A stretch of 64,000 nucleotides of DNA from Schmidtea nova. Its lineage: Eukaryota. Each line of letters opens with the position of its first letter. The stretch's first letter is position 1. This document shows, piece after piece, positions 16,183-43,668 of the stretch. The stretch lies in the NCBI GenBank assembly GCA_044892505.1, contig CM097882.1, positions 379,812,001-379,876,000 on the forward strand, in the 5' to 3' direction. The position numbers were made by a program, and so were the translations under genes. The notes below the pieces were generated by a model, which was given only the letters and a program-made list of their open reading frames with translations, was not told the origin of the DNA and did not search any database.

Positions 16183-16188
<6 letters not shown>

Positions 16189-19780: not shown

Positions 19781-20313
19781 AAATCGATCTTTGTGGGAAA
19801 AAGTGAATTCGATATCTGCGGACAGTTTAGAGCGCCTGAACCGGGATGAATTGAATTTAGCGAGGAAAGGTAAAGTAAATAATAACAGAGGGTTTAAGTG
19901 TCGTGAAGCAAGAATGAATCGGGTTGAAAAATAATAGATAAAAGTATGAGTGTAAAATAATGAGATTGATGAACGTGATGAAAGTATGCATGAGAATGAA
20001 AGTATGAATGATAATGGAATGGAAGTATGAGGACGAATGAAGTATGATGAATAGTATGTGGAATAACAGTATGAAAAGTGATGAAAAGTATGCATGACGT
20101 AAGGTAAAAGTATGCTGAAAAGCGCGTATGAAAATGGTATGAGTGTGAGCAACTAACAAGGATCATGTCGGGGCGACATTCAAGAACACGGGGGGATATA
20201 CACGCAGTGACGCAAAACAGAACAACAGAAAGCGAACAGTAGGACTACCATAGAATAAGAATAAGAAATAATAAATAAAAATCGACAGAAATTAATGGTA
20301 ATTCATTCAGGGG

Positions 20314-20772
20314 ATGGAGAACAAAATAAAAGAAATGCAAACGTTTTTCGAGACAAATAACGAGACAATGGAGATAATAATGAGAAAGTTAAGACGACTC
20401 GAGGTAGGAGGATATCACAAACCGACAAACAAAACAGAAAGAGCCGAAATGATGATGAGCATAAGCGAGAATAAGATAACAGTGGATACAGCAACACGAT
20501 ATCAGTGGTATAGAGAAAGATTAAACAACCCTGAGATGAATATCGAGTGCCACAGGCTAGAACAACAAATTGCAACAAAACACGATGAGTGGATAAGAAT
20601 AACAACCGAACATACGAGACAATATCTGACGTGTTACATCTGTGAAATGAATAAGATACAGATACTGTTGTTGCCGTGTGGGCATTATCGATTCTGTAAT
20701 GAGTGTAAAATAAATGAACGATGTCCTATGTGCAACCTTCCCGTATCCGAGAAAATAACAGTGTACTTGTAA
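20314..20772 (+). CDS. 152-aa protein with a C-terminal IAP/MDM2-type C3HC4 RING (no BIR domain)
   Basis: CYICEMNKIQILLLPCGHYRFCNECKINERCPMCNLPVSEKITVYL at the extreme C-terminus. Confidence 0.85.
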   Translation: MENKIKEMQTFFETNNETMEIIMRKLRRLEVGGYHKPTNKTERAEMMMSISENKITVDTATRYQWYRERLNNPEMNIECHRLEQQIATKHDEWIRITTEHTRQYLTCYICEMNKIQILLLPCGHYRFCNECKINERCPMCNLPVSEKITVYL

Positions 20773-21475: not shown

Positions 21476-21993
21476 CATAGGTCTCATAGTGAGCATAGGT
21501 CTCGTCATGAAACATAACATCCTAGTGAGCGTAGGTCTCGTCATAGTGAGCATAGTTCTCGTCCGTAAATATAAATCTCGTAGTGAGCAGAGTTCTCATT
21601 AATAAACACAAGACCAGCGAACATAGTCCTCATCAGTGAGCGTAGTTCTCATTAATAAACATAGTCATCGTAGTGAGCATAGTTCTCCTCAGTGAGCATA
21701 GTTCTCGTCAGTGAGCATAGTTCTCGTCAGTGAGCATAGTTCTCGTCAGTGAGCATAGTTCTCGTCAGTGAGCATAGTTCTCGTCAGTGAGCATAGTTCT
21801 CGTCAGTGAGCATAGTTCTCGTCAGTGAGCATAGTTCTCGTCAGTGAGCATAGTTCTCGTCAGTGAGCATAGTTCTCGACAGTGAGCATAGTTCTCGTCA
21901 GTGAGCATAGTTCTCGTCAGCGAGCATAGTTCTCGTCAGTGAGCATAGTTCTCGTCATTGAGCATAGTTCTCGTCATTGAGCATAGTTCTCGT
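21476..21993 (+). repeat. 19-bp minisatellite (GTGAGCATAGTTCTCGTCA), ~17 near-perfect copies plus degenerate 5' copies
   Basis: Directly visible; the homogeneous part spans ~21673-21993. Confidence 0.97.
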
Positions 21994-22317
21994 TCGAAAT
22001 AAAATATTGAGTAAAAGCCCACGAGAAAGACGACGAAGTGAGGCAGATGAGGACTAAATAAAGTATAAAACTATCCGGATAGTAAAGATCAACAAGCGAT
22101 AATGGAGATGAATAAGTGATAATGGGGATAAATGATGAATAGTGAAAATGAATAGCGAATAATGAGGAATAAGGGTTGAAAGAAACCGAGGTAATAATGA
22201 GAGAGTTGAAGGTGCGCACCTGGGTATTGATAAATGCGAGTAAAGCTGATTATGTAGCCTAATGACGTCAAAGTATGCATACAAGGAGGAGTAGTAAAGT
22301 AAAGTGAGTAAGTAAAG

Positions 22318-22870
22318 GGTGCTGACTGGAAAACCCAGCAGACCATGAGATTCGATGGGAATTAAAGGAAACCGGTTTGTTAAGACAGGTAAAGTGGTAA
22401 AGACGCTAGCTGGAAAACCCAGCAGGTCAATGATAACGATCAGGAAAGATCGAGAGAATAAAAGGGAGTAACAATAAAGTGGTGAAATTGAGGACGCTGA
22501 CTGGAAGACCCAGCATGTCAAAAGTGATGATCATCGGAGCAAAGAACAGGTAAAAGTCGACAGTGAAGAGATAAAGGGTGGAGAATAAGAGCGCTGACTG
22601 GAAAACCCAGCAGACTAATGAAACGACAGTCGTGGTCGAGAATAACGAGATAACAGTAAAAGGGGAGATTAAAAGCGCTGACTGGAAAACCCAGCAGGCT
22701 AATGAGATAATGAGTGATGTTGAGAGAAATAAAGTTGAGATAAAAAAGTGAGATTAAAAGCGCTGACTGGAAAACCCAACAGGCTAATGAGATAATGAGT
22801 GAAGTTGAAAGAAACAGAGTTCGAGATAAAAGGTGAGATTAAAAGCGCTGATTGGAAAGCCCAACAGGCC
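22318..22870 (+). repeat. Seven spaced copies of GCTGACTGGAAAACCCAGCAG (period ~85-95 bp)
   Basis: Copies at approximately 22320, 22405, 22495, 22592, 22677, 22762 and 22846. Confidence 0.9.
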
Positions 22871-23744
22871 AACAAGAGATGTCAGTTGAATTAAAGGTGA
22901 GTAGAGATGAGAATTGAAATGAAGTAGTAAACGTAGTGTGAATAGGAAATAAAGCGAATAGCCGAGAAACAGAGTAGTCGACAGATAAGGGGAAATTTGA
23001 ACTCAGAGCCAGAGAAGCCTGAGAAAAGTAAAGGGGATAATAAGAGCGCTGAGCGACAAAGTAATTGGGGAACTGGGGAAAAGTAATTGGTGTATTTGAT
23101 AAAGAATAGATAATTGATGCGACTGCATAGATAATTTAAATAGACTTAAAATCAAGGGAAATGGGAAAAATGGGGATCTTCATGAATTATGACTACACCC
23201 GTGAGAGGGACGAGAAACACGATAACGGGGACGTATCGTGTAAGTGATTATTTGTTTTAAGGAAACAAATCAATCAAGCAATTCAAAGCAATCTAGCAGT
23301 CAGAACAATCAAAGGAAACAAATCAAAGAAGAAACAAAGCAAAAGCGAAGTAGAAAATCAGTTGAGAATATAAGAAGTTGAGGAATAGACAAAATTGAGG
23401 GACGAGAAACAAGATCAGGTATAATACCAATCTTAACGGAAGCAGAAAGAAAAGCAGCAAAAAGAACAAGAACAGGTAACAAGCCTAAGCAACAAAAGAA
23501 CAAACAAGTAGAGATCAACGACAATTCGAGTAATAAAGAGAATCAAGAAGAAACCCCAGAAGATCTAGAAGTACGAAACGAAGTAGAAACGATAGACAGT
23601 GAACCAGTTAGTGAAAACATAACGAGAAGCGAATCAAGAGATAACGAAACAGAGAGTAGTGAGGAAGAAGAGTCGAATCCAGAAACAAGTGGTGAACTAG
23701 AAGCAAAGAAAACTAGTACAGTATTCCAAGATAGTGGAATCAGG

Positions 23745-26700
23745 ATGAGTGATCACAGAGAGGATCTAAGAGAAAAATTCAAGGGCGAACCATTCAACGG
23801 AGACGCCAGTAGATTGGATACGTTCCTGAAGGAATTTGGTATATTTGTGGATATATGCGGATGGAGTGCAGAAACGTTGGCAAATCGAATCCCGCTATAC
23901 TTGAAAGATAGCGCATTGGATCTGTATATTGAAAAGAGATCGGGAAGTAGTCCACCCAGAACGTGGGAAGCGATCAAGGAGTTCTTCCAACAGACGTTTG
24001 GGATAAACAAAGTGCTGAATGAAGCATTCGATGAGTTCTCAGCAAGAAAACAGAGGAGAAATGAGTCAAATGCGGTGTACGCAAGTGAATTAAGAAAGTT
24101 GGCGAAACTGGCATTCAACAGAGGAAGTCCAGTAGACGAAGAATTGATGACAGCGTTATTCGTACGAGGTCTCAGGAGACCTGACATCAGAGCACAAGTG
24201 GGATGCAAAGGATGTAAAACAGTAGATGAAGCGTTGGAAGCAGCCAACCTATTCGAATTGCATATGGCAATGAATGACATGAGAATTACGGCGGTAATGG
24301 GAAAAACGACGGAAGATGAAGAACAAGGAAAAAGAAACATGAATCAAAGTATTCCCCATTCGCAGAGATTGTTCAAAGAACCGCCAACGAGGAAGAATAA
24401 CGGATATATTACGGTGAATACGAATGGAGGAAATAGTTACAATGATAGGCAGAATAGGCAATGTCAGACGTGTGGAAAAAACGGACATTGGCAACAAGAT
24501 TGTTTTCAGAATGTAGCCTGCAAACTGTGCGGACAAAAAGGTCACTCAGAGAATCGATGTTATGGGAAAACGTGTTACACATGTGGAAAAACCGGACACA
24601 TGTCAAAAGACTGTAATCAACAGAGAAATTGGTCAAACAGTGGAAATAGACCGAATTACGGGAATCGACCAAGCTATGGGAATCAAGGTCAACAACGGAA
24701 CAACCCAAACAGCAGTGCAAACGAAGCTAGTATGAAAGAAGCTAAGTTGAGACAGGAGGTGTCTAGATTACACGAGATAATCGAAAGCATGGCAAAGGGA
24801 AGCCAACAAGCTGCTCAACCAAAGATAAACATGATCCAGTTAATAGAAGCTGAGGCTGAAAGAGAAAATAGAGAAAGCCAACAGAAACATAACCAAGAAT
24901 GGGCTAGAGTACGACGAGAAGAAGAACAAGTCAGGCAACAACGATTACAACAGTTAAAAAAGGGAAATCCAAGGATCAACATGATGCGAGCAATGATGGA
25001 AGAGAAGCAGCAGGATGAGTCAGACGAGTTAGAAGTTAAAGAGAAAAGAAACGAAGAGCAGAAACAAGAAGAAGTGAGTCAGGAAGTAGAAGCCACAGAG
25101 CAGAATCAAAAAGTTGAAGAAGTAGAAAAAGAAACAGAAATAGAAAAAGAAACAGAAAAAGAAACGAATCAAGAAGAGGAAGTGAGAATCAAACAAAGAG
25201 GAATGTTGGTGATCATGCCGAATGATCACGTGTGGCGATTCAAATACGATGTAAAAGAAGAAGTGGGAAGATTGTTCAATAAAGTAAATGAGATGATGCC
25301 GGGAGTGACGAAACTGCCCAGAGAAGCATTCCTACAAACAGAAGATCTACCAGAAGTGAAGTTAAAGATGACTGATATATGGGAAGATATGGGAGTAACG
25401 GAGACGAAAATAAACGTGATGATCATCAGAGAGGTGGAACCGGAGAAAATCCCACCACCAGTGAAACATCAAACTCGGATCAGTCGAATATTCAAAGGAA
25501 AAATAAGACGAAGACGGTTGGAAGAAATAGATGAGTTGGAGAAAAGAATGGGAAAAGCTGAAGTAACAGGAAACGAGAATGAACTAATACAAGAAGTTAG
25601 CAAAAACGAAGCGAGACCAATCGCACATATTGGGATGCTGAGACACCCAAGACAAGAGTTGTCAGATGAAGAAGACGACAGCGAAGTTAGCAGTCTGGCA
25701 GGAGACATGCTAAAGGAACCGGAAAACGAGGATAAAAAGATGGAAGTAGTCGAGACAATAGAAACAATGTCAGTAAAGGAAGACGAAATTCAGAAGCTGA
25801 TGGATAACGCGTTGGAAGTAATCCATAACGAGGAGTTTATTGACACGAAACGATACCGAAAGTTTATACGAGCAGTATGGCAAATGAAGTACAAAGAGTG
25901 GTTACAAGAAAGAGAAGTGAGGGTAATACAAGAGTTCATAGAGAAGTTATTGAAAGAACCACTCAACGAATATGTAATACAAATATGGATAAACGAGTGT
26001 TCACCGAGAATCTGGATAAGGAACCCAATGACAGACGGAATTTACCGATGGGTTGAGGACAGATTGGGAAGCTCGTACCAAGACAAATTCATATATTCGG
26101 AAAACGGATTGGTGAGAAAAGGAACGCATATGATAGACACGGGCATCTGGCCAGGAGAAATAACGACGTTATCTATATGCAACACCAAGAAGGAAGAGAA
26201 CTTACAAGGAATCGTCAAAGAAGCGAATACGTGTTATGAGATGAGAATAAAACCTCAGTTGCTAGAGGCAAAGGAAAGAATCTTGGCAGAGAATTTGAAT
26301 ACGATGATAGAACAGATCATACAACAAATCAAGAAACATCGAAAGAAATTGACGAAAAGCGAGTATGAGAATTTGAAACAGTGTATCGAGAACATACGAG
26401 ATACAAGTCAAACGAGACATTCAAATTTCAAAACAGACAAGCTAATCGCAAAGATGGGAAAAGAAATGTTTAAAAGAGGAGAAGTATCAGATCTGAAGAT
26501 TACCGTGAGATTACCGAATGAAGAGACAAGACAAATTGAGGTAATACCAGATAGTAAAGTGGGAGAAATAGTAGATGTCATCAATGAGACGATATTACAA
26601 CGAGAACGGGAAGATGAATTCGAGGATGACATTGCGATAAAATACAAAGAACACCTACTAAACGAACGTGACGAAAGACGAGCGTATAAAATCGGCATAT

Positions 26701-29700
26701 GGGATAATTATCAGACAATACATGTCATCAGAATGGATGATGTGCAAAGAGCAACACCAAGGGATGAAAAAAGGAGAAAGAAACGACAAGAGGACGTTAT
26801 GCGCAAGCTGAGGCAGATAGTAGAAATCTATCGGAACTGGCAGATGAAGCCAGAATGGGAGACAATATTAGGAGAAGTGGATCTTAACAGACGACGATTG
26901 ACGCCAGTGGAAAAACAATGGGATAACAAGGAGAAATGTTGGAAAGTGAAAAGAGGCGTGTATGAAGAAGATCCGGAAGGAGAAGACGGATATGAACTGA
27001 ATACGAAACGGATATGTATGGTAACAAGGAAGTTATTACCAACGGACTTAGACGGACCAGAAACTGCAGTAATATGGGCAGAATTGGAGAAACAGAAAAC
27101 GAGTGAATTGATAGAGCTGTTGAGAGGAAACACTCGGGGAAAAAGACAAACAATAAAAGGCTTAGCACAATTCATAATCTCAAATGGAGAAGATATAACG
27201 AACTTGAGAAAAGTAGCTAAAGCGATAGCAGAATACAAGAGAGTTAACGAGTGGTGTCCAGAGCAACTAGACGATGTAATAAAAAAGTGGAGAAACAAAG
27301 AGTTTGCGGAGGAAACGCCACAGAAAATACATTTGAGGATAATGTATCCGAATCAGAGAAAAGAAGAGTTTTGGGTGATGCTAACGGAAAAAGTGAAAAG
27401 TGTTAAAGAGAAACTGATGTACGAACTACCATTCCACCTGCAACATCAAGGACGATCGTTGGATAACAATTTGGAAATCTGGCTGACACCAGTGCAATTG
27501 GATCTAATGAATACGCTAACAGTGGCACAAATAGTGGGTCAACCACTGAAGTTTAAAGAGGAAAAGAAAGCGAAAGGAAGCATGAGTACACCAAGTCCGA
27601 TGAAGTCAACAATGACCCCAGGAACAAGTTCGGGACAAGCAAAGACAACACCAATAAAAACGAGAGAGAGAACACCGCCAGAAGCGTATGACGTCGATGA
27701 GATACTAACAGATAGTGATGAGGCGATAGAAGAACTAACGAAGTTGACTCAAAAACCAACGGCGAATATTTTCGACAGAATAATAGAGATGCCAATAACG
27801 TCACCAGCAGAAATCGACGACCAAGGAGTGGAACAGGAGGTAGTCATAGAAATGGTAAACGATTCGGAAGACGAACAAGAACAACCACAGTTTACTCAAG
27901 AAATGGAAAGATGGTTGGAACAACGAGCAAACGAAGGAAGAGATGTGACGGAAGAAACAGGAAGAGCAACGAGATTTGTAGAAACCGGAACTGGAATGGA
28001 AAAACGACCAAGAGGAAGATCAAAGATAGATCCAGCAACAGCAATTCCAAAGACAAGAGAAGAAAGGAGACAAGAGCAATGGGAGATTTGCTTGAAGAAA
28101 TTGGATAAAATCGCAGAGATCAGAGGAAAAGAAGAGAATCAAGTTTGTCAAGGAGAAGAATGGCTCACCAAAACGATAATGGATGTGTTAGCGATAATTG
28201 ATCCAGAATTAAAGAATTTGTGGCGGATAAACGAACCTAGTACAAAGGCACGGATGCTACACAATGCAATAGCACCGATTATGCCAGAATTAATTAAAGC
28301 GAAAACAAAATCGAATCATCTAGATTGGCAAGGAACCACAATGTTAATAAAAAGGCTACTGAACGGAGCAGAAACGGACAGCAAATATCTAGTAGCAATC
28401 TCGTATACAATATACAATTTGTTAACGCTAAGCCGAGGAAGTCCGAAGTCAAGTCCGATGGGAAGACATATTAAAAATACGGCGTTGATTATCGAGAAAG
28501 AAATTGAACCATATATCCTCAGAAAAGGAGGATGGGAAAAGTTCATAAAAGAGAACCAGACGAAAGAAGGCTCAAACGTCATGAGAAAGAAACTCGAAGG
28601 AGTATTGAGAGAAATGGAGAATAGACAAACGATGCAAGGAAACGGAAGATCGACGTTGAATTTGAACTCGATAATCATGATGATGTTAGTATGGTTGTTA
28701 AGCACAGAAGGTGTAACAACGTTCGAAGTATTTGATTGCGATCAAATGAAGTTAGGAGAAAAGTACTCATTGAGAGGTACGGAGCAATGCAAAGATGCAA
28801 CTCCCGTAGAGTTAAAAGAGATTAAAAAGGAACAATGGTACAACGTGTATCAAGAGGCAGAACTAATAAAGACAATGGTGAATGAATGCAAGGTGCAGAA
28901 GACGAGATTCGCATTTTATTGTGGGAGAGGACATTATTCAGCAATTGTCATGCCAGGAACAGAAAGAGAACCAATCGTGTTGCAAGGAGAAGACTGCGAA
29001 GCATTATTTAAACATGGAGAAGTAACAACGAGAGATAAAATCAAGATAAGAGGAAAGCCAGGAATGATGTTACAGCAGACGTATTATGTAGCAGGACGAA
29101 TTACGGGAGGAGAAGGGTATTGTCAAGGAGAAACCTACCCAATATTCGGAGTGCCTGCAACCAACTTAGTTGTGATGGATACGTACATAGTTGAACTGAA
29201 AAGTTACGAAGCATTTTTTGAACCAACCACAGGAGAAATGAAAACGTTATCCATGTGTAAAATCGACAGAAGCATGTGTCAAACGGGAATGTCAACATTG
29301 GTGTATAAACCAAAGGTGAACGAATGTCAATTACAACTGCTACAAGGAGCAAAGTTTGACGAAATTCAAGGGAAAACATTCCAAGAAGAAGATGATGATG
29401 ACAAAGCTAGAGCAAAACATCTCAAAGAGGCTTTAGAGAATAAAAGACAATTGAGACCAGATCACAAAGAAAAACGGATAGAGATGAGAACCACACCAAC
29501 AGTGCTGATAACCACAAATCAGGATGTGGGAATGAGATTCATAAAAGGGAAAGCAACCCTTAAGTGCAGTACAACAGTATACGAAACAAACTATCCAGGA
29601 ATATACGTGTCAAAGCAAGAAGTGCCGAATGCGAAACCCAAGATTGACACCATGGATATCAAGCTACACTTGTATGTGAATAATAAAATGGATTTCTTAT

Positions 29701-32700
29701 TCCATAGAGGACAAGCCTCATTGCAAAAAGTGTACTATGACCTGATAAACAACGATTGTATACTGAATCGAGAAATATTAAAGACAAAGTTGGCCGTAGC
29801 GATTACGAATCCAGATAGCGCGATGCCGTTATTACCACTGAGAGAAGGACATTTCGGAAGAGTGGTCGGAGAAGCAATGTATGTATACATTTGCGAAAAG
29901 ACACACGCATCGCTAGCAACAACAACGCAGTTGAAACCTGGACAATGTACAAACGAACTAGAAATCGATTACAAAGGAAAAGTACGATACGTTCAACCGG
30001 TGACGAGAATCATCAATCCACCAAGTTTTGAACCAAATCCATTCAACTGTAGTAACGCGTACGGACCGCTTTATCAGAAGCCAGATGGCAAATGGGTCAT
30101 GTTCCCAGGAAGAACTGAAGTATTAGCACCAAGAGAATTTGAGCTAATGCAGTTGTCAAAAGATAGACAGTTCAGCGACGTAGATGTCTCAAACAACGGA
30201 ATCTATAGTCCAAAAGATCTGGAAGCAGCAAGACAGAATATACTATTTCCGGCAAGAAGAGAAGCATTACTGTCAAATATCGTAACGATAACGGGAGGAA
30301 CGAATTATCGAGAAGGACCGAATTACGAACTGCTGTTGTCACCGGCACATTTCAAGAAAGCCACAGAAAATATGATGAAGGCGATGTGGGGAAGATTCCT
30401 GATATTTGGACAAATGATGGCTGGAATACTGGGAGTTATATTGATAATACAAATCGTCAGAGTGATAATAACGCAGATGTTAGCGTGTTTCGACATCTAC
30501 AAGAGAGAAAAGAAAGTGAATTGGAAAATGGTAGTAGGATTTTTACCATTCCTTGCGAAAACGATGGTGTTACATGGACACTCAAAAGACATACATCGAA
30601 TAAAGAGGTTGTTGAAGATACTTGCAAAAATGAAAGGAACTAACGAAGATGTCGGAAGAAAATTCAAAAAGATAATGCAAGATGAACAAGCAAGACGACA
30701 ACTGAAGAAGGAAAGGAAAGGATTATGGGAAAGAGTGAGAGGATATCGAACACAAGATGATTCAAGTAATGATGACGATGATGATGACGATCGAGGAGGA
30801 CAAGCGAATATAAACCAGATTCCACAGTATACCGAAAAGAGTGCAGTTGAGAATTGGAGATACAGCGCTCCACCTCAGTCGATGTATAACGAACCGATAT
30901 ACAAAGCGAAGCCGAATATGATGCAGATGATGCCGATGACAAGTATATACCCGATAATTCCAGAAGGATGCAAAGTAAAACGAGGTAGTAGCGTAAACTC
31001 GTTGGAAGACACGCACACGATAGCAGTTATGTCCACAAATATGGGACCCATCTTAACAACAACCGTAGAAATAAACGGAAGAGAAATTGAAGCTATGATC
31101 GATACAGGCGCGAATATTTCGGCGATCGACATTAATTATATACCAGAGAAAAACCAAGGAGAAATCGAGAAGACGAATGTACATGTAATCGCGTGCAGTC
31201 AAGAGACAGTAGAAGTAGCCGGAAGATGGTTTGTAAAAATTAAGCATCGAGGTGCAGAGATCAACACGTACATCGCTGTAATACCATCGCTGAGTGTACC
31301 ATGTATTATTGGAACTGACCTGATGCCAGACCTGTTCAAGGAAATCGTGATTGATCTAGGAGCAATGAAACTAAAAGATAGAACAGGAAAAATTTGCAGA
31401 ATGAAAGTTAAAGTGGCAAGTGCAGAACAAATAGTAGTGCCAGCGAGACATGAAAAGATGTGTTATGTCAAGATCGATTCAACAATAAAGGGAGATATGA
31501 TATTCGAACCAAGTAAGAAGTTCGAAGCGAAGAAGGAATTACCAATGGCAAGAGAACTGGTTACGACAAACCAAGAAGGTGAGATACCGATTAATCTGGT
31601 AAATTTCGACGAAGAGGACAAGATAATATACGAGAATGAGAGATTGGGTAAATTGACACCCATGTCCGAAATCGAAATACCAGACAAGAATGAGTGGGCA
31701 AAGGCCAAAGAAACGATCAAGCAAAGTAGACTAGGAAACATAGAACCATCCAAAGATATGGAAATACGAGAATTCGAGTCTAGCACACTCGCGGTTCAAG
31801 CGTATGAAAGATTAATTGAAGAAATTAATGTCGAGGACGACATTTTTAAAGGACCAGGGGGTGGTTCCAAAGATCACAACGATAAAGGAGACGCCGAAAA
31901 GGAGAACAACGAGGATAACAACAGCAACAGCGACAACAAAAGAACGGAAGATGAGGAAAGAGAGAGACAAGAAGAACCGAAGCCAACGAGAAACGACAAG
32001 AAAGGAGAAGCCGAAGAACGAGACAACAGTGGAACAAAAGATGAACATGCGAACTATGGAAAACGAACAGGAAGTCTACTTTTGAGACCAGAAATGTTGT
32101 GTATTGCGATATTGATAACAATCATCGGACAAGGAGAAGCCAAGAAACAACACGTCACGCTAGAGATAATCAGAGGAAACGAAGTATACGAAAGAATATG
32201 CTGGAAAGAAAACATGAGGAAAAACGATACGCTGAAGTGCATATTGTCAGATTTGAAGAAAGACGTCATCCAAATCAAAGGATTGGAGAAAGAAAAGTCA
32301 TACATAATATGCGCAATAAAGCAGAGAGGAGAACCGAAAGCACCTCAAGTAACTGCATGTCAATTATATAAAGCAACAGAAGCGCTGAAAATACAGAAAT
32401 GGATTGAGAAAAGAAGCGAAGAGACAACGAGAAGAACAGAAGTAGAATCGGAGAAAGGGAAGAATCAATCTGAAGCAGAAAAAGGAATCGGAAACCGAAC
32501 GGAGAAAGAAAGAATAACCAAAAATTCAGCGGGAAAATTAACATTCCAACCGGAATTGATATGTGTAGCATTAATACTAATCCTCATTAAGAGAATCATG
32601 GAGGACATAGATATTAGCGTAATGACGTTAGTAAATATCCAAGACCAACGAACAACGAACGGAAGATGTTGGGGACGAAACAATGAGGTAATTGGAATCA

Positions 32701-34019
32701 GCGAAACAAGAGAAAGTCGAGAGGCAGAGACAAATGAGGAAATCGAGATAACCGAAATGGAAACAGAGAAAACATGTGAACTATGCCTCATGGAAAAGGC
32801 AGCAAACGGAAACAGACCAGGAACAAGCGAGTGTAAAGTGTTCCAAGCAAAGGAGATAATTGAGTTCCCAAAAAGAAAGAAACAAGATCAAGAAACGATT
32901 GCGAATGAAGTAGTAACAGTGGAGATAAAAAACATTGGTCGGAGAACAATTGGGATGTGTTGGAGAAAATACATCGGAGTACCGACCAACAACGTACTAC
33001 CGCAATGCAAAACGAGAGAACGAGGAATCCCGTTTCAACTAAATGGATTCGAAGTCGGACAAGCATATGAAATTTGCGTAATCCGAAGAATAAGAGAAAT
33101 AATACAAAGAAGCCTGGAATGTAAACTATACAAGACGCCAGAGCAAATTAACGGAACAAGAACGATCGAAATGGGAGGAAGTCGACAGAGGAAAAGAAAG
33201 TCAAGAAGAACCACGACAGCCAACAGTCAAGGAACTCAACAGGCAACAACAGAAAGGATGACAATAGAAAACGAACCGGAATCAACAACGTTGATAATAT
33301 GGAAGATCCATAAAAAGGTCCTAGAAATCTGTTGGACGTTGATGCCAAACAGTATGGGAAAGTCCCCACGAAACTGTCAAAAGACATCAAATGACAAAAG
33401 GGAAACAATCGAGGTAGAAATGAGGAAGTTGAAAACAAATGCAGAATACGAAGTGTGTGCAATCGAAGAAGTAGATGCACAAGGAAATCAACAGGAAAGG
33501 TGTGAAACCTATTACACGCCAAGAAACGTAACGATAAAGAGGAGAATCAAAAAGTTAGAATTCCGAGAATTGAGTCAGAAGAGAGAACAAAACGAGAAGG
33601 AGGAGACAATACCAAGTCGACAAGAAAAATGGGAACCAGAGAAAGTGATCGAAGAAGTCAGACGGAGACAACAACAATACGAACAATGGGAAGCAGAATG
33701 GAAAGGTCAATATGGCGTGATGATAAACCAAAGTGAGACTCCAAGAAGGAGCATTGGGAAAACAATAATGGGATTAATCAGCATGGGAGTATTCATAGGG
33801 TGTATACCACTGATAACGATCATGATAGTATGTTGGAGATATGGCATGAGAAATAAGACCATAGCAGTAAAATGGCCAGACGTAAAGGTCATGAATTACA
33901 ACATAAAACTACCAAAAGAAGTACGAGAAGAGCTGAAAAGACGGTCAAGACATGAAGAGATGTGGGTACAGATCGAGGACGAGGAACTGTACGAAGGAAA
34001 ACCAGTAATAGTTGTATAG
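23745..34019 (+). CDS. 3424-aa polyprotein: Gag + 3 CCHC, UBL domains, Bcl-2-like domain, chuvirus-type env, retropepsin, dUTPase-like segment, 4 FN3-like modules, TM
   Basis: Gag FNGD..F..EF..RKQ..NES; knuckles at 24462-24614; EPYILRKGGWEKF (BH2-like) at 28500-28544; signal peptide followed by FDC..YSL..C..FYCG from 28668; TM at ~30395-30480; AMIDTGANIS (DTG at 31101) and IIGTD; terminal TM at ~33765-33836. Confidence 0.93.
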   Translation: MSDHREDLREKFKGEPFNGDASRLDTFLKEFGIFVDICGWSAETLANRIPLYLKDSALDLYIEKRSGSSPPRTWEAIKEFFQQTFGINKVLNEAFDEFSARKQRRNESNAVYASELRKLAKLAFNRGSPVDEELMTALFVRGLRRPDIRAQVGCKGCKTVDEALEAANLFELHMAMNDMRITAVMGKTTEDEEQGKRNMNQSIPHSQRLFKEPPTRKNNGYITVNTNGGNSYNDRQNRQCQTCGKNGHWQQDCFQNVACKLCGQKGHSENRCYGKTCYTCGKTGHMSKDCNQQRNWSNSGNRPNYGNRPSYGNQGQQRNNPNSSANEASMKEAKLRQEVSRLHEIIESMAKGSQQAAQPKINMIQLIEAEAERENRESQQKHNQEWARVRREEEQVRQQRLQQLKKGNPRINMMRAMMEEKQQDESDELEVKEKRNEEQKQEEVSQEVEATEQNQKVEEVEKETEIEKETEKETNQEEEVRIKQRGMLVIMPNDHVWRFKYDVKEEVGRLFNKVNEMMPGVTKLPREAFLQTEDLPEVKLKMTDIWEDMGVTETKINVMIIREVEPEKIPPPVKHQTRISRIFKGKIRRRRLEEIDELEKRMGKAEVTGNENELIQEVSKNEARPIAHIGMLRHPRQELSDEEDDSEVSSLAGDMLKEPENEDKKMEVVETIETMSVKEDEIQKLMDNALEVIHNEEFIDTKRYRKFIRAVWQMKYKEWLQEREVRVIQEFIEKLLKEPLNEYVIQIWINECSPRIWIRNPMTDGIYRWVEDRLGSSYQDKFIYSENGLVRKGTHMIDTGIWPGEITTLSICNTKKEENLQGIVKEANTCYEMRIKPQLLEAKERILAENLNTMIEQIIQQIKKHRKKLTKSEYENLKQCIENIRDTSQTRHSNFKTDKLIAKMGKEMFKRGEVSDLKITVRLPNEETRQIEVIPDSKVGEIVDVINETILQREREDEFEDDIAIKYKEHLLNERDERRAYKIGIWDNYQTIHVIRMDDVQRATPRDEKRRKKRQEDVMRKLRQIVEIYRNWQMKPEWETILGEVDLNRRRLTPVEKQWDNKEKCWKVKRGVYEEDPEGEDGYELNTKRICMVTRKLLPTDLDGPETAVIWAELEKQKTSELIELLRGNTRGKRQTIKGLAQFIISNGEDITNLRKVAKAIAEYKRVNEWCPEQLDDVIKKWRNKEFAEETPQKIHLRIMYPNQRKEEFWVMLTEKVKSVKEKLMYELPFHLQHQGRSLDNNLEIWLTPVQLDLMNTLTVAQIVGQPLKFKEEKKAKGSMSTPSPMKSTMTPGTSSGQAKTTPIKTRERTPPEAYDVDEILTDSDEAIEELTKLTQKPTANIFDRIIEMPITSPAEIDDQGVEQEVVIEMVNDSEDEQEQPQFTQEMERWLEQRANEGRDVTEETGRATRFVETGTGMEKRPRGRSKIDPATAIPKTREERRQEQWEICLKKLDKIAEIRGKEENQVCQGEEWLTKTIMDVLAIIDPELKNLWRINEPSTKARMLHNAIAPIMPELIKAKTKSNHLDWQGTTMLIKRLLNGAETDSKYLVAISYTIYNLLTLSRGSPKSSPMGRHIKNTALIIEKEIEPYILRKGGWEKFIKENQTKEGSNVMRKKLEGVLREMENRQTMQGNGRSTLNLNSIIMMMLVWLLSTEGVTTFEVFDCDQMKLGEKYSLRGTEQCKDATPVELKEIKKEQWYNVYQEAELIKTMVNECKVQKTRFAFYCGRGHYSAIVMPGTEREPIVLQGEDCEALFKHGEVTTRDKIKIRGKPGMMLQQTYYVAGRITGGEGYCQGETYPIFGVPATNLVVMDTYIVELKSYEAFFEPTTGEMKTLSMCKIDRSMCQTGMSTLVYKPKVNECQLQLLQGAKFDEIQGKTFQEEDDDDKARAKHLKEALENKRQLRPDHKEKRIEMRTTPTVLITTNQDVGMRFIKGKATLKCSTTVYETNYPGIYVSKQEVPNAKPKIDTMDIKLHLYVNNKMDFLFHRGQASLQKVYYDLINNDCILNREILKTKLAVAITNPDSAMPLLPLREGHFGRVVGEAMYVYICEKTHASLATTTQLKPGQCTNELEIDYKGKVRYVQPVTRIINPPSFEPNPFNCSNAYGPLYQKPDGKWVMFPGRTEVLAPREFELMQLSKDRQFSDVDVSNNGIYSPKDLEAARQNILFPARREALLSNIVTITGGTNYREGPNYELLLSPAHFKKATENMMKAMWGRFLIFGQMMAGILGVILIIQIVRVIITQMLACFDIYKREKKVNWKMVVGFLPFLAKTMVLHGHSKDIHRIKRLLKILAKMKGTNEDVGRKFKKIMQDEQARRQLKKERKGLWERVRGYRTQDDSSNDDDDDDDRGGQANINQIPQYTEKSAVENWRYSAPPQSMYNEPIYKAKPNMMQMMPMTSIYPIIPEGCKVKRGSSVNSLEDTHTIAVMSTNMGPILTTTVEINGREIEAMIDTGANISAIDINYIPEKNQGEIEKTNVHVIACSQETVEVAGRWFVKIKHRGAEINTYIAVIPSLSVPCIIGTDLMPDLFKEIVIDLGAMKLKDRTGKICRMKVKVASAEQIVVPARHEKMCYVKIDSTIKGDMIFEPSKKFEAKKELPMARELVTTNQEGEIPINLVNFDEEDKIIYENERLGKLTPMSEIEIPDKNEWAKAKETIKQSRLGNIEPSKDMEIREFESSTLAVQAYERLIEEINVEDDIFKGPGGGSKDHNDKGDAEKENNEDNNSNSDNKRTEDEERERQEEPKPTRNDKKGEAEERDNSGTKDEHANYGKRTGSLLLRPEMLCIAILITIIGQGEAKKQHVTLEIIRGNEVYERICWKENMRKNDTLKCILSDLKKDVIQIKGLEKEKSYIICAIKQRGEPKAPQVTACQLYKATEALKIQKWIEKRSEETTRRTEVESEKGKNQSEAEKGIGNRTEKERITKNSAGKLTFQPELICVALILILIKRIMEDIDISVMTLVNIQDQRTTNGRCWGRNNEVIGISETRESREAETNEEIEITEMETEKTCELCLMEKAANGNRPGTSECKVFQAKEIIEFPKRKKQDQETIANEVVTVEIKNIGRRTIGMCWRKYIGVPTNNVLPQCKTRERGIPFQLNGFEVGQAYEICVIRRIREIIQRSLECKLYKTPEQINGTRTIEMGGSRQRKRKSRRTTTANSQGTQQATTERMTIENEPESTTLIIWKIHKKVLEICWTLMPNSMGKSPRNCQKTSNDKRETIEVEMRKLKTNAEYEVCAIEEVDAQGNQQERCETYYTPRNVTIKRRIKKLEFRELSQKREQNEKEETIPSRQEKWEPEKVIEEVRRRQQQYEQWEAEWKGQYGVMINQSETPRRSIGKTIMGLISMGVFIGCIPLITIMIVCWRYGMRNKTIAVKWPDVKVMNYNIKLPKEVREELKRRSRHEEMWVQIEDEELYEGKPVIVV

Positions 34020-34141
34020 AGGGTGGAATATGAGTGTAAATAGTAGTGTAAAAACCAATGCATAACCGTATACGTATGGGTATAAATATTATAAAACATA
34101 AAAACAGAAAAAAGAGAATGATGTATATAATCTAGAAAACG

Positions 34142-34492
34142 ATGAATCAAGAAAATATCGAGATGTCGATGATGACAAGATGGAAAGTGCAATGTGACCT
34201 GCTAGCCAGAACAGTAAATGAATTACAGAGCCAGTTGACGGCCAAAACACAATTATTAACCGAGAGTTATAACTGTAATTTCGAAGCAATGAACAAAATT
34301 GAGATTCAACAACTACAGATAAACGAATTACAGAACGAGAACCGAACATTAAATGAAGTGAACAACTGGCAAGCAGAGGAAATTGACCGATTAACGAGAC
34401 ATGAAGAAGAAGAGATACCGGATAGTTGGACGAGCTGGATTGTGAATGAGATAGACGTGTATCCAGAGCCGGATTCAACTGAGGATGTATAG
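34142..34492 (+). CDS. 116-aa coiled-coil cargo protein
   Basis: Intact ORF with the same purine-rich sense strand; its C-terminus (YPEPDSTEDV) resembles that of the 386-aa ORF (FHEPEETDV). Confidence 0.65.
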   Translation: MNQENIEMSMMTRWKVQCDLLARTVNELQSQLTAKTQLLTESYNCNFEAMNKIEIQQLQINELQNENRTLNEVNNWQAEEIDRLTRHEEEEIPDSWTSWIVNEIDVYPEPDSTEDV

Positions 34493-34581
34493 TGAATAAG
34501 CGGAAAATTGTGTAAATACGTGTAAATAAAGAACCAGAAAAATCAAAAATATGGGGAAATTGATGTAAATATTGTTGTAGA

Positions 34582-35994
34582 ATGAGAGCAGAAAGTGAAG
34601 CAGATTACCAAACAATCGAGATTCTAAGAGGAGAGAATCGACAATGGGGAGTAAATGTGACGTGTGTAAAGTGTAAAAATTTACTGTTAAAACCGAGACA
34701 AACGGAATGTGGATGCAGGATGTGCACCAAGTGTATATTGCAAATAATCAGTGAAAGTGAGACAAGAAAGTGTCCAGAGTGTGACGATAAACTACTGATC
34801 AACGAGACAAAACCAGATAAAGCAATACAAAAGGAGATCTGGAAGATAAAAACAGAGTGTATAAACCAACCATGCGAATGGAAAGGACAAATAATCGAGC
34901 TAAGACAACATCTGGAGAAATGTGAAAACAAGAAAGCGATATGTGAAAAGTGCCAACAGACGATAACCATCAAGCAGTCAAAAAAGCACAAGGACGAGTG
35001 CAAAGCAGAGATAATAGAGTGTCAATACTGCGAACAAAGAGAGACGAGAGAAGTAATCGAAACAGAGCATCTCAACGTAGCAGAAGAGAAAGTGTGTAGA
35101 AAATTCAGAGGAATTTGTCCAAGTAATTGTGGAGCAGGAGAAGAAGTGATGTTGAAAGAACATTGGGAACAGTGCGAATCCAGACCAAGAAAGTGCGTAT
35201 GGAGTAAACAAGGATGTGCAGTAAAGAAAACGAGCAAAGAGATGAAAGAGCATTTGGAAACGGAAACGGTACAACACGCCGAGATGTTAACAGCGAATTT
35301 GAACGGAATGGAGCAAACCATACAGAAACTGGGAAAAGAAATCGAATCTCAGAGGATAATGACGGAGTTATTACTGGAAACGAGAGAGCAATTCGAGCTC
35401 ACCGGAGAAAAAATGATGGAGAAAATCAAAGTCATAGAGACATTGGTAAAAGAAGTAAACGTGAGACATCAAATGTGGATACGAGATACAGAGGATATCG
35501 AGAATTTACCGGTCGCACCATATGTATGGAAAATCAAGAACTTCAATGACAAATTCGCAGCAGCAAAAGCAGGAAGTCAAGTGTCGGTAACAAGTCCACC
35601 ATTCTATCTGTGGAAAAATGGATACAAAGTCCGGATGAGAATTTATGCAAATGGAGATGGATCAGGAAAGGAAACGCATGTGTCGTTATTCTTCGCGTTG
35701 TGTAAAGGTGGTTACGACGACATATTAGAATGGCCACTAGAAACAAAGGCTATAATGAGAGTGAAAAACTCGAAAGAAACAATAGCGAGAGTATTCAAAA
35801 TTGATGGTAAGCACGAAGCTTACAAAAGACCAACCACAGAATGTTCATTAGCGACTGGAGAACCAAAATTCATACCACACCAAACAACGTGGGAGATGTT
35901 GTACGATGACAACTTATATGTAGAATTGGAAATCGAAAAGAAAGCAAGTACAACAGTGATGAACACGAAGTGCACGAAAGGATGGTTAGAGTAG
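34582..35994 (+). CDS. TRAF: Intronless full-length TRAF-family protein (RING, TRAF zinc fingers, coiled coil, MATH)
   Basis: CVKC..PRQTECGCRMCTKC..CPEC; PDKAIQKEI..C.N..C.W.G; CVWSKQGC; MATH domain YVWKIKNF..SPPFY..GYKVRMRIYANGDGSGKETHVSLFF.L.KG.YDDILEWP. Confidence 0.95.
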   Translation: MRAESEADYQTIEILRGENRQWGVNVTCVKCKNLLLKPRQTECGCRMCTKCILQIISESETRKCPECDDKLLINETKPDKAIQKEIWKIKTECINQPCEWKGQIIELRQHLEKCENKKAICEKCQQTITIKQSKKHKDECKAEIIECQYCEQRETREVIETEHLNVAEEKVCRKFRGICPSNCGAGEEVMLKEHWEQCESRPRKCVWSKQGCAVKKTSKEMKEHLETETVQHAEMLTANLNGMEQTIQKLGKEIESQRIMTELLLETREQFELTGEKMMEKIKVIETLVKEVNVRHQMWIRDTEDIENLPVAPYVWKIKNFNDKFAAAKAGSQVSVTSPPFYLWKNGYKVRMRIYANGDGSGKETHVSLFFALCKGGYDDILEWPLETKAIMRVKNSKETIARVFKIDGKHEAYKRPTTECSLATGEPKFIPHQTTWEMLYDDNLYVELEIEKKASTTVMNTKCTKGWLE

Positions 35995-36083
35995 TCAGAG
36001 TGAACAACCCTGTAAATAAAGTGTAAAAATCGACGACAACAATAAACATATAGTATAACAAGTGTAAATTTGTAAATTACAGA

Positions 36084-37244
36084 ATGGAAAACGCAAATGA
36101 ACATGTAAGCGAAGATGACACGAGAAACGAGATGTCAAACGAACGAGAATCAATAGAAAGAGAAATCGAAAGGAGATGTAAAATGGAAGTGGAACAAAGA
36201 ACCAGAGAATTAAACGAAGTAATGACAAATAATTTCTACGAGAAACTAAAATGTGAGAGACGAACGGAGTTATATCAACTAGAACTCGAGGAAGTAAATA
36301 AAGAGATAGTACAACTGACAACACAAATGGAGAAGCTAAAAGGAACGAATGTACGAAGTCGACAGAAGATAGAAGAGACCTATCAGTTGATGAGGAAACA
36401 AGCAGAACATTATAAAAATATGATGAAAACACGAAGAGAAGAGAGGGAGAAACAAGAGGAAAAGATGGAGGTAAAAATACTAGCAATCAAGGCTCAAGCG
36501 AGACATTGGAAGATGGAGTCGAAACGAGTGTATAAAGAAGCCAAAGAAATAATCAGAAAGACAGCATACAGCGAAGATTGGAAACTGTATCAAGAGATAG
36601 ACGAATTGAAAGAGGAATTGGAACAGAAAAAGCGACAAGAACAGACAAACAAAGAATGGAGTCGAAAACGACAGCGATTTATTCGAGAACAGGCGAAGGA
36701 ACTAAAGAAAACGCAATGGCAAATACAGATGATAAATGGAGAAATGCGAGGCATTAGACAGAAAGAGGAAGCGGAAAGACAAAAGTTGATCAGGGAAAAA
36801 GAAAGTCTGGAAAGAGATGTAAATGGCTACCAAGGAGTAGTGACTCAAAAGAAAATGGAACTGAAAGCTGTGAAGGAAAGACATGCGGAATCAAACCGAG
36901 CTTATGAGGAAAATATAACGAACTTGACGAAAGAAAACGAGGAACTGAAACAACAAATAAGAACCCTGAAAGCAGAGAAAGAAACCCCAGAAATAGAAAC
37001 CGAACCACCAGAAGCAGAAGCCCTGAAGAGAAAAGTGGAAGAAATGGAAAGACAAATCGAAACTCTGAGCGAACAATCAGACTACATGGAGTATCTGTTA
37101 GATGAAGAGATACAAATCTCTCGAACGTATCAAGATGAAATCGCAATGTGGCGAAGCAGAGTGGTGTGGTTACCGTTTATACCACCACCACCAATGGAAC
37201 TCCAAGATGAAGGGTTCCATGAACCAGAGGAGACGGATGTGTAA
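36084..37244 (+). CDS. 386-aa coiled-coil cargo protein
   Basis: Long intact E/K/R-rich heptad ORF. Confidence 0.75.
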   Translation: MENANEHVSEDDTRNEMSNERESIEREIERRCKMEVEQRTRELNEVMTNNFYEKLKCERRTELYQLELEEVNKEIVQLTTQMEKLKGTNVRSRQKIEETYQLMRKQAEHYKNMMKTRREEREKQEEKMEVKILAIKAQARHWKMESKRVYKEAKEIIRKTAYSEDWKLYQEIDELKEELEQKKRQEQTNKEWSRKRQRFIREQAKELKKTQWQIQMINGEMRGIRQKEEAERQKLIREKESLERDVNGYQGVVTQKKMELKAVKERHAESNRAYEENITNLTKENEELKQQIRTLKAEKETPEIETEPPEAEALKRKVEEMERQIETLSEQSDYMEYLLDEEIQISRTYQDEIAMWRSRVVWLPFIPPPPMELQDEGFHEPEETDV

Positions 37245-37317
37245 AAAGAGGCGAAAAATCCGTGTGTAAAAATGTACAAATCAATGTAACAGGTATTAAT
37301 CAGTAGAATAATCAGAA

Positions 37318-37842
37318 ATGAACTGGCTCAAAACCCTACCAATCCTAACGATTATGTTAACTACAACAATAATGACCTGTTCAACAACCGAAATCCAAAG
37401 AACCCTGTCAAACGAGATATCCCAAGAAATCGAAAAACAACTAAACGAAGTCAGAGAAGACTTGGAACAATTAATCCGACAAATGCGAATCAGTCATGAT
37501 CATCGCAAACCCTTACAAACCCTATTCAACCAAATCGAGAAGATCCGAGAAATCCATAAAACATTCCAAGATCACCTAAAGCCCATCAAAGGCCAAACCC
37601 AAATCGAATCCGAAATCCGAAACAGATGGATCATCGTGGGAATAGTCACAATGACAATACTGACAATCATCCTGATCATCGTGATTACGCATACCCTATA
37701 TCGAATCAGAAGCCTCAAACAACAACAAACGATAATGTGTAGATGCGCCAAACGAGAAGCAAAAACCCAACAAAGGATGAGAAGTCATCTACGACAAATC
37801 CAAGCCCGATACGAAATGCAGTCAACCAGTGAAAGGACCTGA
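37318..37842 (+). CDS. 174-aa predicted type I membrane protein (signal peptide, helical ectodomain, TM)
   Basis: N-terminal MNWLKTLPILTIMLTTTIMTC and TM WIIVGIVTMTILTIILIIVITHTLY. Confidence 0.75.
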   Translation: MNWLKTLPILTIMLTTTIMTCSTTEIQRTLSNEISQEIEKQLNEVREDLEQLIRQMRISHDHRKPLQTLFNQIEKIREIHKTFQDHLKPIKGQTQIESEIRNRWIIVGIVTMTILTIILIIVITHTLYRIRSLKQQQTIMCRCAKREAKTQQRMRSHLRQIQARYEMQSTSERT

Positions 37843-39486
37843 AAACCGACCCCTATGAGCCAGAAACATTGAACTGTGTATAAACAATAAAAACATGACA
37901 AGGACAATGTGTGACTTTGTAAAAATGGGTATAAAAGCTACCACCTTATGTGGTTTTGCATGTAAGTTCTGTCACGAACTTTTTATGTATGTTGATGTAG
38001 GTATATGCATGTAATTGCGGGACGCAATTTTAGGGGACCCCGAGTGATGTTGGGCCAGCCAAATCGAGCAGCATCTGAAAATAATGTACAATCAATAAAA
38101 TAAATTAAATACAGAATAACAACAAAATAAATTACCAACACCAAAGCGTAACAAAATAAGCGGCAACATCTAAAAGAAATAAAGTATTAACCAAAACAAA
38201 ATAAAACTCAAGAACTTACTCATGCGAAACAGAAAAAATCTGAATATGACAGCGCGTGGGCGGATGTCACCGAAGAGCTAAAACAAAATCAAATAAAAAT
38301 TAAATCGTACAAAAAATAAACTTACCGCATGATTAACCAAATCAATCATTGAGTTGAGTTAGGCACCAAAAAGCCGGCAACACAAAATAATGAAGCAAAC
38401 ATACACACATACTCGATGCTGATTGGCTAACCAACAACACCGGTTGAGTATAAATACTGAAGTCAAATCAGTATTTGACAATGTCATTTTACCGAGTGCA
38501 AGTTGTAACTGATAACTTGTAGTAATCTTGTGAACCAATCGAAAATAAAAGGTAATTTCGAGTTATGTTTTGATGTATTTAAACCCTCATAATTATGTTA
38601 AAATCCATAAGGTTTTCCGGAGGCCTAACAGCCTGACGGATTCTTTGGCCTCTCAGCGCAACACACCTTATCGGTTGTGAGGTACTGATGCGGCGGGACC
38701 ATAAGTTTACTAAATACTTGATGGGGGAAAAAGGGGATGCACATAGGGTATCGAGTAAGACCTAATGATCATGAACTAAGTCAAGGTAGAGACGGTCTAG
38801 TACAAACGCTATGCATCACGATAATAAGGTATCGAGTGACAGTTAATGGTCATAAATCGAATCAAGGTAAAGCTCATTTCGCAAGGGAAGATATATACAT
38901 GAGGTATCTTGACGAGGGGGTGTACCTTCAAGGAGTGCTGGTACATCAAAAGTCGATGAGAATCGGGATAGGTAAAGCGTAACATGGTGGTCAAAGGACA
39001 TTAGCGCCAAGGGGCAGTAGTGAACCGAATGAGTTGCTAATAAATACATATAATCCCACTGAGGGCATGAAAAGTCAGACCCGATAGTAGATAAAATTAG
39101 TGCGTTTCTCAACGAAGTAGTTGACTAAGGGATTACTAAATTTTCCCCGTGACGTGAATCTTGATAGTTGCTGATGATGATCCGTAAATGAACCATGTTG
39201 AATGAATGAAAATGATCGATGAGAAATTAAATGTAACGTAAAATATGATTGTAAATAACAAGTCGAAATGAGCGTAGCTAAAACCAACTGAAATTGCGGA
39301 GTGAATCAACTCACCCAAGTAAAGTCACCACCTACATGAACACCGCGACCAATGGTCTAGTAAATTATATACGAGCTACAAGGCCTACGGCTAATAGAAC
39401 GATAAACCAAGTAGGTTGATCGACATAAATATCGATGGTCGATGATAGAGTCTGTCAGTTAACCTAAAATTCCATTTCAGAGTGAC

Positions 39487-40122
39487 ATGATGAAGACCGA
39501 ATATCTCATGAAGGAGCCGGTAGGACCCCTAACCGTCAAATCAGAGGAGTACATTCTACGGAGGAAACGGCGCATCCGCTCCGTCATCACACCAAAATTA
39601 CCTATCGAAATCCAAGGAGAGAAGGAGGCCCCACGCCAAATTTTCAACTCCGCACGTAGACACCTGCGTCGATGGACAAGGACCCATATGAGCACAGCGG
39701 CAAGTATTCCCGCCTGTGCATTCCAACTACAGCTGAGGTGGGAAGGCGATGTCAATTGGACGCCCTCCCCGAACCCCACCAAAGATGGATACGAAAGATG
39801 GTTCTATCAATTTGTAGATGAAACACAACAACCCCGCTGGGTACTAAGCACCGGAATGATGACCGGGCAGGCATTCGGCCAACTCGGGTATTTGCTGCTA
39901 GACAGGCCTCGGTGTGGTGACACTGGGGAAGTCTTCGTTTACCCGAACGCCCCAGGCAGTGTTTCCGTGGATCAACACCCCGAGCCCAAAGACCTTCGCC
40001 TCTGGGAGGTGTTCATTTATCAAAACAAACTGAGTTGGAATCCGGCCCCCGAACTATACCATGAAACAGGGATTCGCCGAGACGAGAACCCGGCCGATCA
40101 AGAGTTACGACCATACAATTGA
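39487..40122 (+). CDS. 3'-LTR copy of the 211-aa ORF
   Basis: Identical translation to 17977-18612. Confidence 0.6.
   Translation: MMKTEYLMKEPVGPLTVKSEEYILRRKRRIRSVITPKLPIEIQGEKEAPRQIFNSARRHLRRWTRTHMSTAASIPACAFQLQLRWEGDVNWTPSPNPTKDGYERWFYQFVDETQQPRWVLSTGMMTGQAFGQLGYLLLDRPRCGDTGEVFVYPNAPGSVSVDQHPEPKDLRLWEVFIYQNKLSWNPAPELYHETGIRRDENPADQELRPYN

Positions 40123-41640: not shown

Positions 41641-41687
<47 letters not shown>

Positions 41688-42746: not shown

Positions 42747-42785
<39 letters not shown>

Positions 42786-43630: not shown

Positions 43631-43668
<38 letters not shown>

Follow-up and report, generated by a model that had tools for sequence, protein, structure and literature searches.

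The window analyzed here, 64,000 nucleotides of Schmidtea nova DNA (assembly GCA_044892505.1, contig CM097882.1, positions 379,812,001 to 379,876,000 of the forward strand; numbered below from its first letter), carries at 16538-41265 a 24.7-kb long terminal repeat (LTR) element with a gag, a protease, and a glycoprotein (env) gene but without detectable Pol enzymes, that is, reverse transcriptase (RT), ribonuclease H (RNase H), and integrase. At a probability of roughly 70%, we read it as a recently inserted, helper-mobilized, non-autonomous member of the Burro-like GAG-ENV-(POL) Ty3/Gypsy elements. An env of the chuvirus/glycoprotein B (gB) type in Gypsy elements is already in print; as judged from its sequence, what is new is a freshly inserted copy whose env and gag are intact but in which none of the three enzymes can be detected. 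The order along the element is Gag, three CCHC knuckles, a Bcl-2-like segment, Env, protease, and a dUTPase-like domain, with TRAF in a separate open reading frame (ORF). Its ends and primer site are as follows.

16534-16537, + strand: left copy of the 4-bp target-site duplication CATC (right copy at 41266-41269)
16538-19755, + strand: 5' LTR, TG...CA, 3,218 bp
19762-19779, + strand: primer-binding-site-like 18-mer starting with TGG, 6 nt past the 5' LTR
38048-41265, + strand: 3' LTR, 3,218 bp

Two marks of an LTR retrotransposon, paired TG...CA repeats and a target-site duplication, were found. The two LTRs are 99.907% identical (3 mismatches in 3,218 bp, no gaps), and the insertion is young. 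Furthermore, one short RT-like fragment (Pfam RVT_1, E 0.002) is split between its two flanks without a change of frame, which supports a true insertion. The disrupted fragment (16186-16537 plus 41266-41310) has a YVDD motif and is presumably Penelope-like. The primer-site-like 18-mer is one that we take to be of the tRNA-Pro type; ARAGORN detected no tRNA gene in the window, and hence none to pair with it. No runs of N lie inside the element, and no Rfam family was detected in 16000-42000.

Gag and Env are encoded in one long frame.

23382-34019, + strand: single polyprotein ORF, 3,545 codons from stop to stop, first Met at 23745
23745-24614, + strand: Gag, with a capsid-like region and three CCHC knuckles (24462-24614; zf-CCHC, E 1e-8)
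28338-28568, + strand: Bcl-2-like segment ending in GGWEKF, directly upstream of Env, suggested by two-step evidence
28668-28712, + strand: internal signal-peptide-like hydrophobic stretch of Env, with a presumed cleavage point
28713-30386, + strand: predicted class III (gB/chuvirus-type) fusion glycoprotein ectodomain, with 14 conserved cysteines and 1 N-glycosylation sequon
30387-30498, + strand: transmembrane (TM) block of Env, WGRFLIFGQ..., helix 544-597 of the structural model

No stop interrupts this frame, whereas the other two forward frames have 339 and 184. It is open for 121 codons ahead of the first Met of Gag (23382-23744), where a non-ATG start or a spliced leader is possible, and its coding strand (23382-34019) contains 42% A versus 35% in the flank. 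By BLASTP, the window Gag matched the Gag regions of the related proteins P0001, P0002, P0009, and P0018; Retrotrans_gag was detected in relatives only (P0016, E 1.7e-4), and the capsid gave no informative match in the PDB. About 1,200 residues between the CCHC knuckles and the Bcl-2-like segment have no assignment. A ubiquitin-like domain is not claimed there, as a profile from relatives reached an independent E (iE) of only 0.16 at 26490-26594. The Bcl-2-like segment itself drew a blank in direct library searches, and a profile built from four relatives matched it at iE 1.7e-13; P0007, one of the four, matches Pfam Bcl-2 with E 0.00096, under the curated cut-off. With profile A2, the 60 best of 226 rows did not include Bcl-2.

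The glycoprotein is a domain of the polyprotein (residues ~1763-2407); two stretches of it match PF24664 (Monjiviricetes_fusion), the better one at residues 2033-2374 (E 1.1e-67, 228.9 bits against a cut-off of 27). A preceding sequence-only reading had placed a class III, gB-like, chuvirus-type glycoprotein, accompanied by a Gypsy-like gag and protease, at 28668-30600. The Pfam match, the fold matches, and the Gypsy-type relatives described below bear out its type, and the CCHC knuckles and a protease with a DTGA motif (31101-31112) bear out its company; its location was right too, but it is no ORF of its own. Of the cysteine pattern cited in that reading, EC.V..T.F.FYCG..HYS matches literally at 28884-28940, whereas the first part fails as written, being shorthand for the true spacing FDC-x8-YSL-x5-C (FDC at 28731-28739 and YSL at 28764-28772, + strand). 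The C-terminal TM motif W.RFLIFGQ..AG..G.I.I..I was recovered literally at 30387-30455, within a hydrophobic block with a Kyte-Doolittle peak of 2.55. None of 2,000 shuffles matched any of the three motifs, a control that is circular because the motifs were derived from the same sequence. All 14 ectodomain cysteines are present in every ungapped close relative, and each is kept in 90-99 of the 91-99 distant relatives ungapped at its position. The window glycoprotein has 1 sequon, the median among the 95 stand-alone relatives being 4, and its signal-like position is also hydrophobic in P0002, P0006, P0008, and P0015. The class III architecture, namely signal peptide (with presumed cleavage), conserved-cysteine ectodomain, and C-terminal TM segment, is present in the sequence.

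An AlphaFold model of the glycoprotein monomer, made from an alignment of 119 sequences, reached a mean pLDDT (predicted local distance difference test) of 90 and a pTM (predicted template modeling score) of 0.69; it shows a central helix of 48 residues (318-365) and domains rich in beta structure. When it was compared with the PDB by Foldseek, all 34 rows shown were herpesvirus gB (best E 1.1e-13). Similarly, the independent aligner VIA ranked gB first to fourth (Z 9.3-7.6; best match Z 9.3, root mean square deviation 11.1, 431 residues aligned), the later rows being single helices. Among predicted viral proteins, the top Foldseek matches were Tacheng Tick Virus 4, which we take to be a chuvirus, and chu-like viruses (E 5e-38 to 2e-35). 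A single-sequence search of PDB sequences was not useful (3 rows, best E 0.64); with the family profile, 36 of 38 rows were gB (best E 0.0017). The best structural matches are thus gB and chu-like glycoproteins rather than a non-fusogen, and by sequence and predicted fold the glycoprotein is a class III fusogen.

Homologs of the glycoprotein were sought among 1.84 billion representatives, which gave 943 matches at E<=0.001, the best 150 being listed. The closest glycoproteins among the matches listed are all polyprotein-embedded and 35-40% identical over the full length. Rows with at least 480 amino acids (aa) of glycoprotein came from 111 of 156 proteins (16 polyprotein-embedded, 95 stand-alone). 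Two quick trees were built, the first from the 16 polyprotein rows with 50 of the 95 stand-alone ones, the second with 16 of the 95; both have Shimodaira-Hasegawa-like approximate likelihood ratio test (SH-aLRT) support and a midpoint root only, and their rows include no named chuvirus sequence. In both, the window glycoprotein and its 16 polyprotein relatives form a 17-row group with SH-aLRT 95. P0061, in which DUF5641 (presumably a Pao integrase-end marker) lies ahead of the glycoprotein, groups with the stand-alone glycoproteins in both trees, so that the comparison with Pao-type env proposed by the sequence-only reading sets the window glycoprotein apart from that row.

Since the window glycoprotein is nested among polyprotein-embedded relatives, the env capture is old. 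The sequence-only reading had instead suggested an independent capture by this Gypsy element, and a recent capture of a chuvirus glycoprotein would agree with the chu-like proteins being its best predicted-structure matches among viruses. Those matches, however, are 16-21% identical to it, compared with 35-40% for the retroelement-embedded relatives, and the tree contradicts such an event. Furthermore, the window glycoprotein, compared by eye, runs colinear with the env domain I/II rows of Smed_errantivirus_5 and 6 and shares words such as PGTERE and GMRFIKG with them (PMC13524379). With the glycoprotein in a clade of gag-env-pol polyproteins and the env type already published, we consider a recent independent capture highly improbable.

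The same relatives define the backbone. Eight of the 16 contain an in-frame RT with YxDD, one ends at the RT start, and seven end earlier; P0002, P0006, P0008, P0015, and P0018 have a Gypsy-type Pol in the order RT-RNase H-integrase, and the best PDB match of profile A2 was Ty3 Gag-Pol (E 5e-15). Sequence relationships place the element in the Ty3/Gypsy lineage by descent. In P0088, a glycoprotein of the same family is followed by an in-frame RNase H domain.

Downstream of Env, the polyprotein continues as follows.

31059-31331, + strand: retropepsin, catalytic DTGA at 31101-31112 (Pfam RVP, E 7.8e-9)
31362-31754, + strand: dUTPase-like domain (weak), homologous to the post-protease region of relatives
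31755-32066, + strand: polar linker of ~104 aa, at the site where relatives hold RT-RNase H-integrase
32067-33848, + strand: membrane tail with a signal-like segment, four cysteine-bearing repeats, a second hydrophobic segment, and a TM helix
32145-32378, + strand: tail repeat 1, after the signal-like segment
32604-32852, 32904-33140, and 33279-33524, + strand: tail repeats 2-4, after the second hydrophobic segment
33750-33848, + strand: tail TM helix, C-terminal of the repeats

A Pol profile made from six relatives gave negative scores only in all six frames between the LTRs, detecting no RT, RNase H, or integrase, and as a positive control it found the unrelated Gypsy at 63028-63995 with iE 1.7e-66. 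Neither tblastn with that fragment nor a motif scan revealed any of the three enzymes inside the element. A frameshifted or reverse-strand pol was sought there in all frames, and none was found. Given that no Pol enzyme is detectable, the element would be unable to reverse-transcribe or integrate itself. The protease-dUTPase profile spans positions 6-241 of 292 and ends at 31752. For the dUTPase-like region no Pfam match was obtained, and four of the six PDB rows at E<=10 were dUTPase or dCTP deaminase (best E 0.11, which is weak).

The tail repeats are mutually homologous, as none of 500 shuffles for each equalled the real score. The tail hydrophobic segments at 32055-32135 and 32520-32600 are alike, which suggests an internal duplication of signal plus repeat and leaves the topology of repeats 2-4 uncertain. 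The repeats had no Pfam match; a resemblance to fibronectin-III is a lead, with an Atlas fn3 score of 0.81 (under the 0.9 bar) and a best relevant E of 1.3 by PDB profile. An alignment-free fold model of the tail (pLDDT 38.9, no fold match at E<=0.001) is too poor to inform. In the five complete relatives the stretch beyond the integrase comprises a signal, then a lumenal domain, and finally a TM helix, and the window tail lies in the corresponding position; in the available parts of the literature examined, we found no mention of this post-integrase membrane tail.

The missing enzymes might mean that this is a one-off defective copy of an autonomous Burro-like element, a dead end from which RT-RNase H-integrase disappeared during the final round of replication, following insertion, or through an assembly fault, and whose env is too young to have decayed. 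We regard this as unlikely. Just 3 LTR differences in 3,218 bp, a single copy in the window, and the 1/3 chance that a random deletion keeps the frame would all suit it, as would the fact that none of the 16 relatives has the same junction. Nevertheless, no remnant of an RT start or integrase end is detectable by profile at the junction, no run of N points to an assembly fault in the element, and P0001, P0003, P0004, and P0005 likewise stop beyond their protease-like domains and have no RT. A zinc-finger-like motif closes P0003, and the extra proteases of P0004 are nearer to the post-integrase than to the pre-RT protease of P0006 (63.5/38.5, 50.4/36.2, and 59.3/42.4 bits), though comparison with P0153 gave a mixed pattern. 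P0003 and P0004 may thus be further Pol-less forms, a frameshift or broken assembly being the alternatives. Two to four protease-like domains occur in P0001, P0003, P0004, P0005, P0006, P0153, and P0154, one of them lying after the integrase in P0006, P0153, and P0154.

We tentatively entertain, as a possibility somewhat short of even odds, that the copy represents a lasting multi-copy Pol-less "satellite" lineage of Burro-like elements, in which the enzymes are borrowed while Gag, the fusogen, the anti-death/signaling genes, and the tail protein are selected. If so, an invertebrate would harbor an enveloped retroelement that depends on a helper and escapes surveys based on RT; P0003 and P0004 may be parallel examples. 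Multiple copies would also show that, in an invertebrate retroelement, the half responsible for structure and entry can persist once parted from the enzymes. They would further be evidence for selection of Env for the spread of the element itself, a point relevant to the cell-to-cell movement of gB-type elements. Because RT and integrase are required in surveys of enveloped retrotransposons, such surveys miss Pol-less elements with an intact Env by design.

Besides the polyprotein, the element contains the following ORFs and repeats.

17953-18612, + strand: ORF within the LTR, 211 aa from ATG, no family match (copy at 39463-40122)
18787-19371, + strand: second ORF within the LTR, 193 aa from ATG, no family match (copy at 40297-40881)
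20302-20772, + strand: accessory ORF with a C-terminal RING finger, 152 aa from ATG 20314 (Pfam zf-C3HC4_3, E 3.5e-9)
21615-22912, + strand: leader repeats, a 19-bp tandem array at 21615-22051 and ~85-bp repeats at 22300-22912 (families D2, D11, D12)
34136-34492, + strand: small coiled-coil-like accessory ORF, 116 aa from ATG
34564-35994, + strand: TRAF-like ORF with RING, zinc fingers, and MATH, 470 aa from ATG (Pfam TRAF-mep_MATH E 4e-25, zf-TRAF 3e-5, TRAF3_RING 1.4e-4)
36054-37244, + strand: long charged coiled-coil-like accessory ORF, 386 aa from ATG
37312-37842, + strand: accessory ORF with a hydrophobic N terminus and an internal hydrophobic stretch, 174 aa from ATG

Apart from the RING and TRAF-like ORFs, these ORFs encode proteins without an assignment. 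The spacers at 34030-34142, 34500-34582, 36010-36084, and 37235-37318, which precede the four downstream accessory ORFs, each contain two GTGTAAA words and an AG a short way upstream of the ATG; subgenomic mRNAs may be formed by splicing or trans-splicing at these sites.

LTR elements start reverse transcription from a tRNA primer, their integrase makes the target duplications, and non-autonomous elements use such enzymes in trans. In a helper-mobilized element of this layout, RNA from the 5' LTR would be translated into the polyprotein, of which Gag and the Bcl-2-like part would remain cytosolic. The internal signal peptide would feed Env into the endoplasmic reticulum, presumably with processing by signal peptidase, and the TM block would anchor it; the later signal would carry the repeat tail, in whole or in part, into the lumen. 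On the cytosolic side, the protease would probably process the remaining polyprotein. Env could then trimerize and coat Gag particles, the element RNA would be reverse-transcribed and integrated by enzymes of a putative autonomous relative in the same cell, and Env may allow particle entry into another cell. Meanwhile, the Bcl-2-like, RING, and TRAF proteins would probably dampen apoptosis and immune signaling in the producer cell.

Several points weigh against our reading of the element as helper-mobilized. The 64-kb window holds neither a helper element nor a second copy, and the same protease-dUTPase-tail junction without RT recurs in 0 of the 16 relatives. The intact ORFs need not mean selection after Pol loss, because the LTRs are nearly identical. 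The tail has no detectable similarity to the tails of the relatives (best iE 0.04, at the TM segment; none above 1 bit), and the Bcl-2-like and dUTPase-like assignments are weak or indirect. As for entry, TM-scores of the glycoprotein model to solved gB are only ~0.4, herpes gB requires partner glycoproteins, and the entry mechanism of gB-type elements is stated to be unknown (PMC13524379).

An element that has lost Pol and kept Env is also what a co-opted blocker should look like: the Pol-less copy would be tolerated since its Env, or its repeat tail, hinders incoming Burro-like particles or chu-like viruses. A blocking role has been suggested for solo glycoproteins of chuvirus type in mosquitoes (PMC7642597). 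The element, however, retains Gag, protease, both LTRs, the primer site, and accessory genes, and it is a very young insertion; a mobile unit fits these features better than a fixed host gene does, which makes a blocker improbable.

Elsewhere in the window, three other features were noted. A long single-exon SNF2 helicase ORF at 4576-7581 (Pfam SNF2-rel_dom, E 1e-56), presumably ERCC6L/PICH-like, contains 249-bp internal repeats. Long inverted arms, 41320-44246 versus 49902-52404 with a complementarity of 94-99%, enclose two ORFs (44620-46204 and 48043-50232), which we take to be protein-primed DNA polymerase B-like and which are interrupted by a transposase-like ORF at 46424-47899 (- strand). 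At 61962-64000 lies a second, unrelated Gypsy with a Gag-like ORF, protease, and RT, which has a frameshift near 63660 and is cut by the window end.

Among known systems, the Jingchuvirales, or chu-like, glycoproteins and herpesvirus gB share the fold and the cysteine scaffold of the window glycoprotein, but they are only 16-21% and 10-13% identical to it, respectively, and it lies inside a retroelement polyprotein. Anakin elements of mosquitoes are BEL/Pao elements with a chuvirus glycoprotein (PMC7642597); the same family, PF24664, thus occurs there in an LTR element, but on a Pao rather than a Gypsy backbone and with env after the integrase, whereas the window env precedes the protease. Plant TR-GAG elements likewise combine LTRs and Gag without replication enzymes (PMC4350172), yet they are <4 kb with a Gag ORF only, whereas the window element spans 24.7 kb and has env plus at least seven accessory ORFs.

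Closer are the gB-type elements of animals, in which Gypsy elements across phyla carry a Chuviridae-like env and the order GAG-ENV-POL is found in Platyhelminthes, Nematoda, and Bryozoa (PMC13524379). Nine of these are flatworm elements, six of them from Schmidtea (Smed_errantivirus_1-6, cysteine type C1a). The window element resembles these herpes simplex virus (HSV)/gB-type errantiviruses as a Ty3/Gypsy element with a gB-like, Chuviridae-like env ahead of the pol position, but it lacks the RT, RNase H, and integrase of the errantivirus definition in that work. The survey demanded full-length RT and integrase, and a Pol-less element would therefore have been excluded from it. In the literature searched, which omits most subscription journals and Repbase, we found neither a Pol-less env-bearing Burro-like element nor a fibronectin-III tail.

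The nearest described counterpart is the planarian Burro, reported in 2019 with Gag, CCHC knuckles, a BCL2-like motif, a dUTPase-like domain, and MATH/TRAF, and with an env in frame between gag and pol that matches mononegavirus glycoproteins of arthropods and fish (PMC6431247). In common with Burro/GYPSM1, the window element has giant size, multi-kilobase LTRs, tandem repeats, and one polyprotein with Gag and CCHC knuckles. Its env likewise lies in frame within a single giant ORF, after Gag and before the protease, and its TRAF/MATH lies in an accessory ORF. The segment before env and the domain after the protease, weakly assigned here as Bcl-2-like and dUTPase-like, may correspond to the BCL2-like motif and the dUTPase-like domain of Burro. 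Unlike Burro, it measures 24.7 kb instead of >30 kb, its TRAF ORF follows the polyprotein, searches of it showed no ankyrin or BIR and no confirmed ubiquitin-like domain, and its four-repeat C-terminal membrane tail is absent from the available Burro description. Above all, it lacks RT, RNase H, and integrase and hence the protease-RT-RNase H-integrase core of Burro, and for this reason we file it as a Burro-like derivative rather than as Burro itself.

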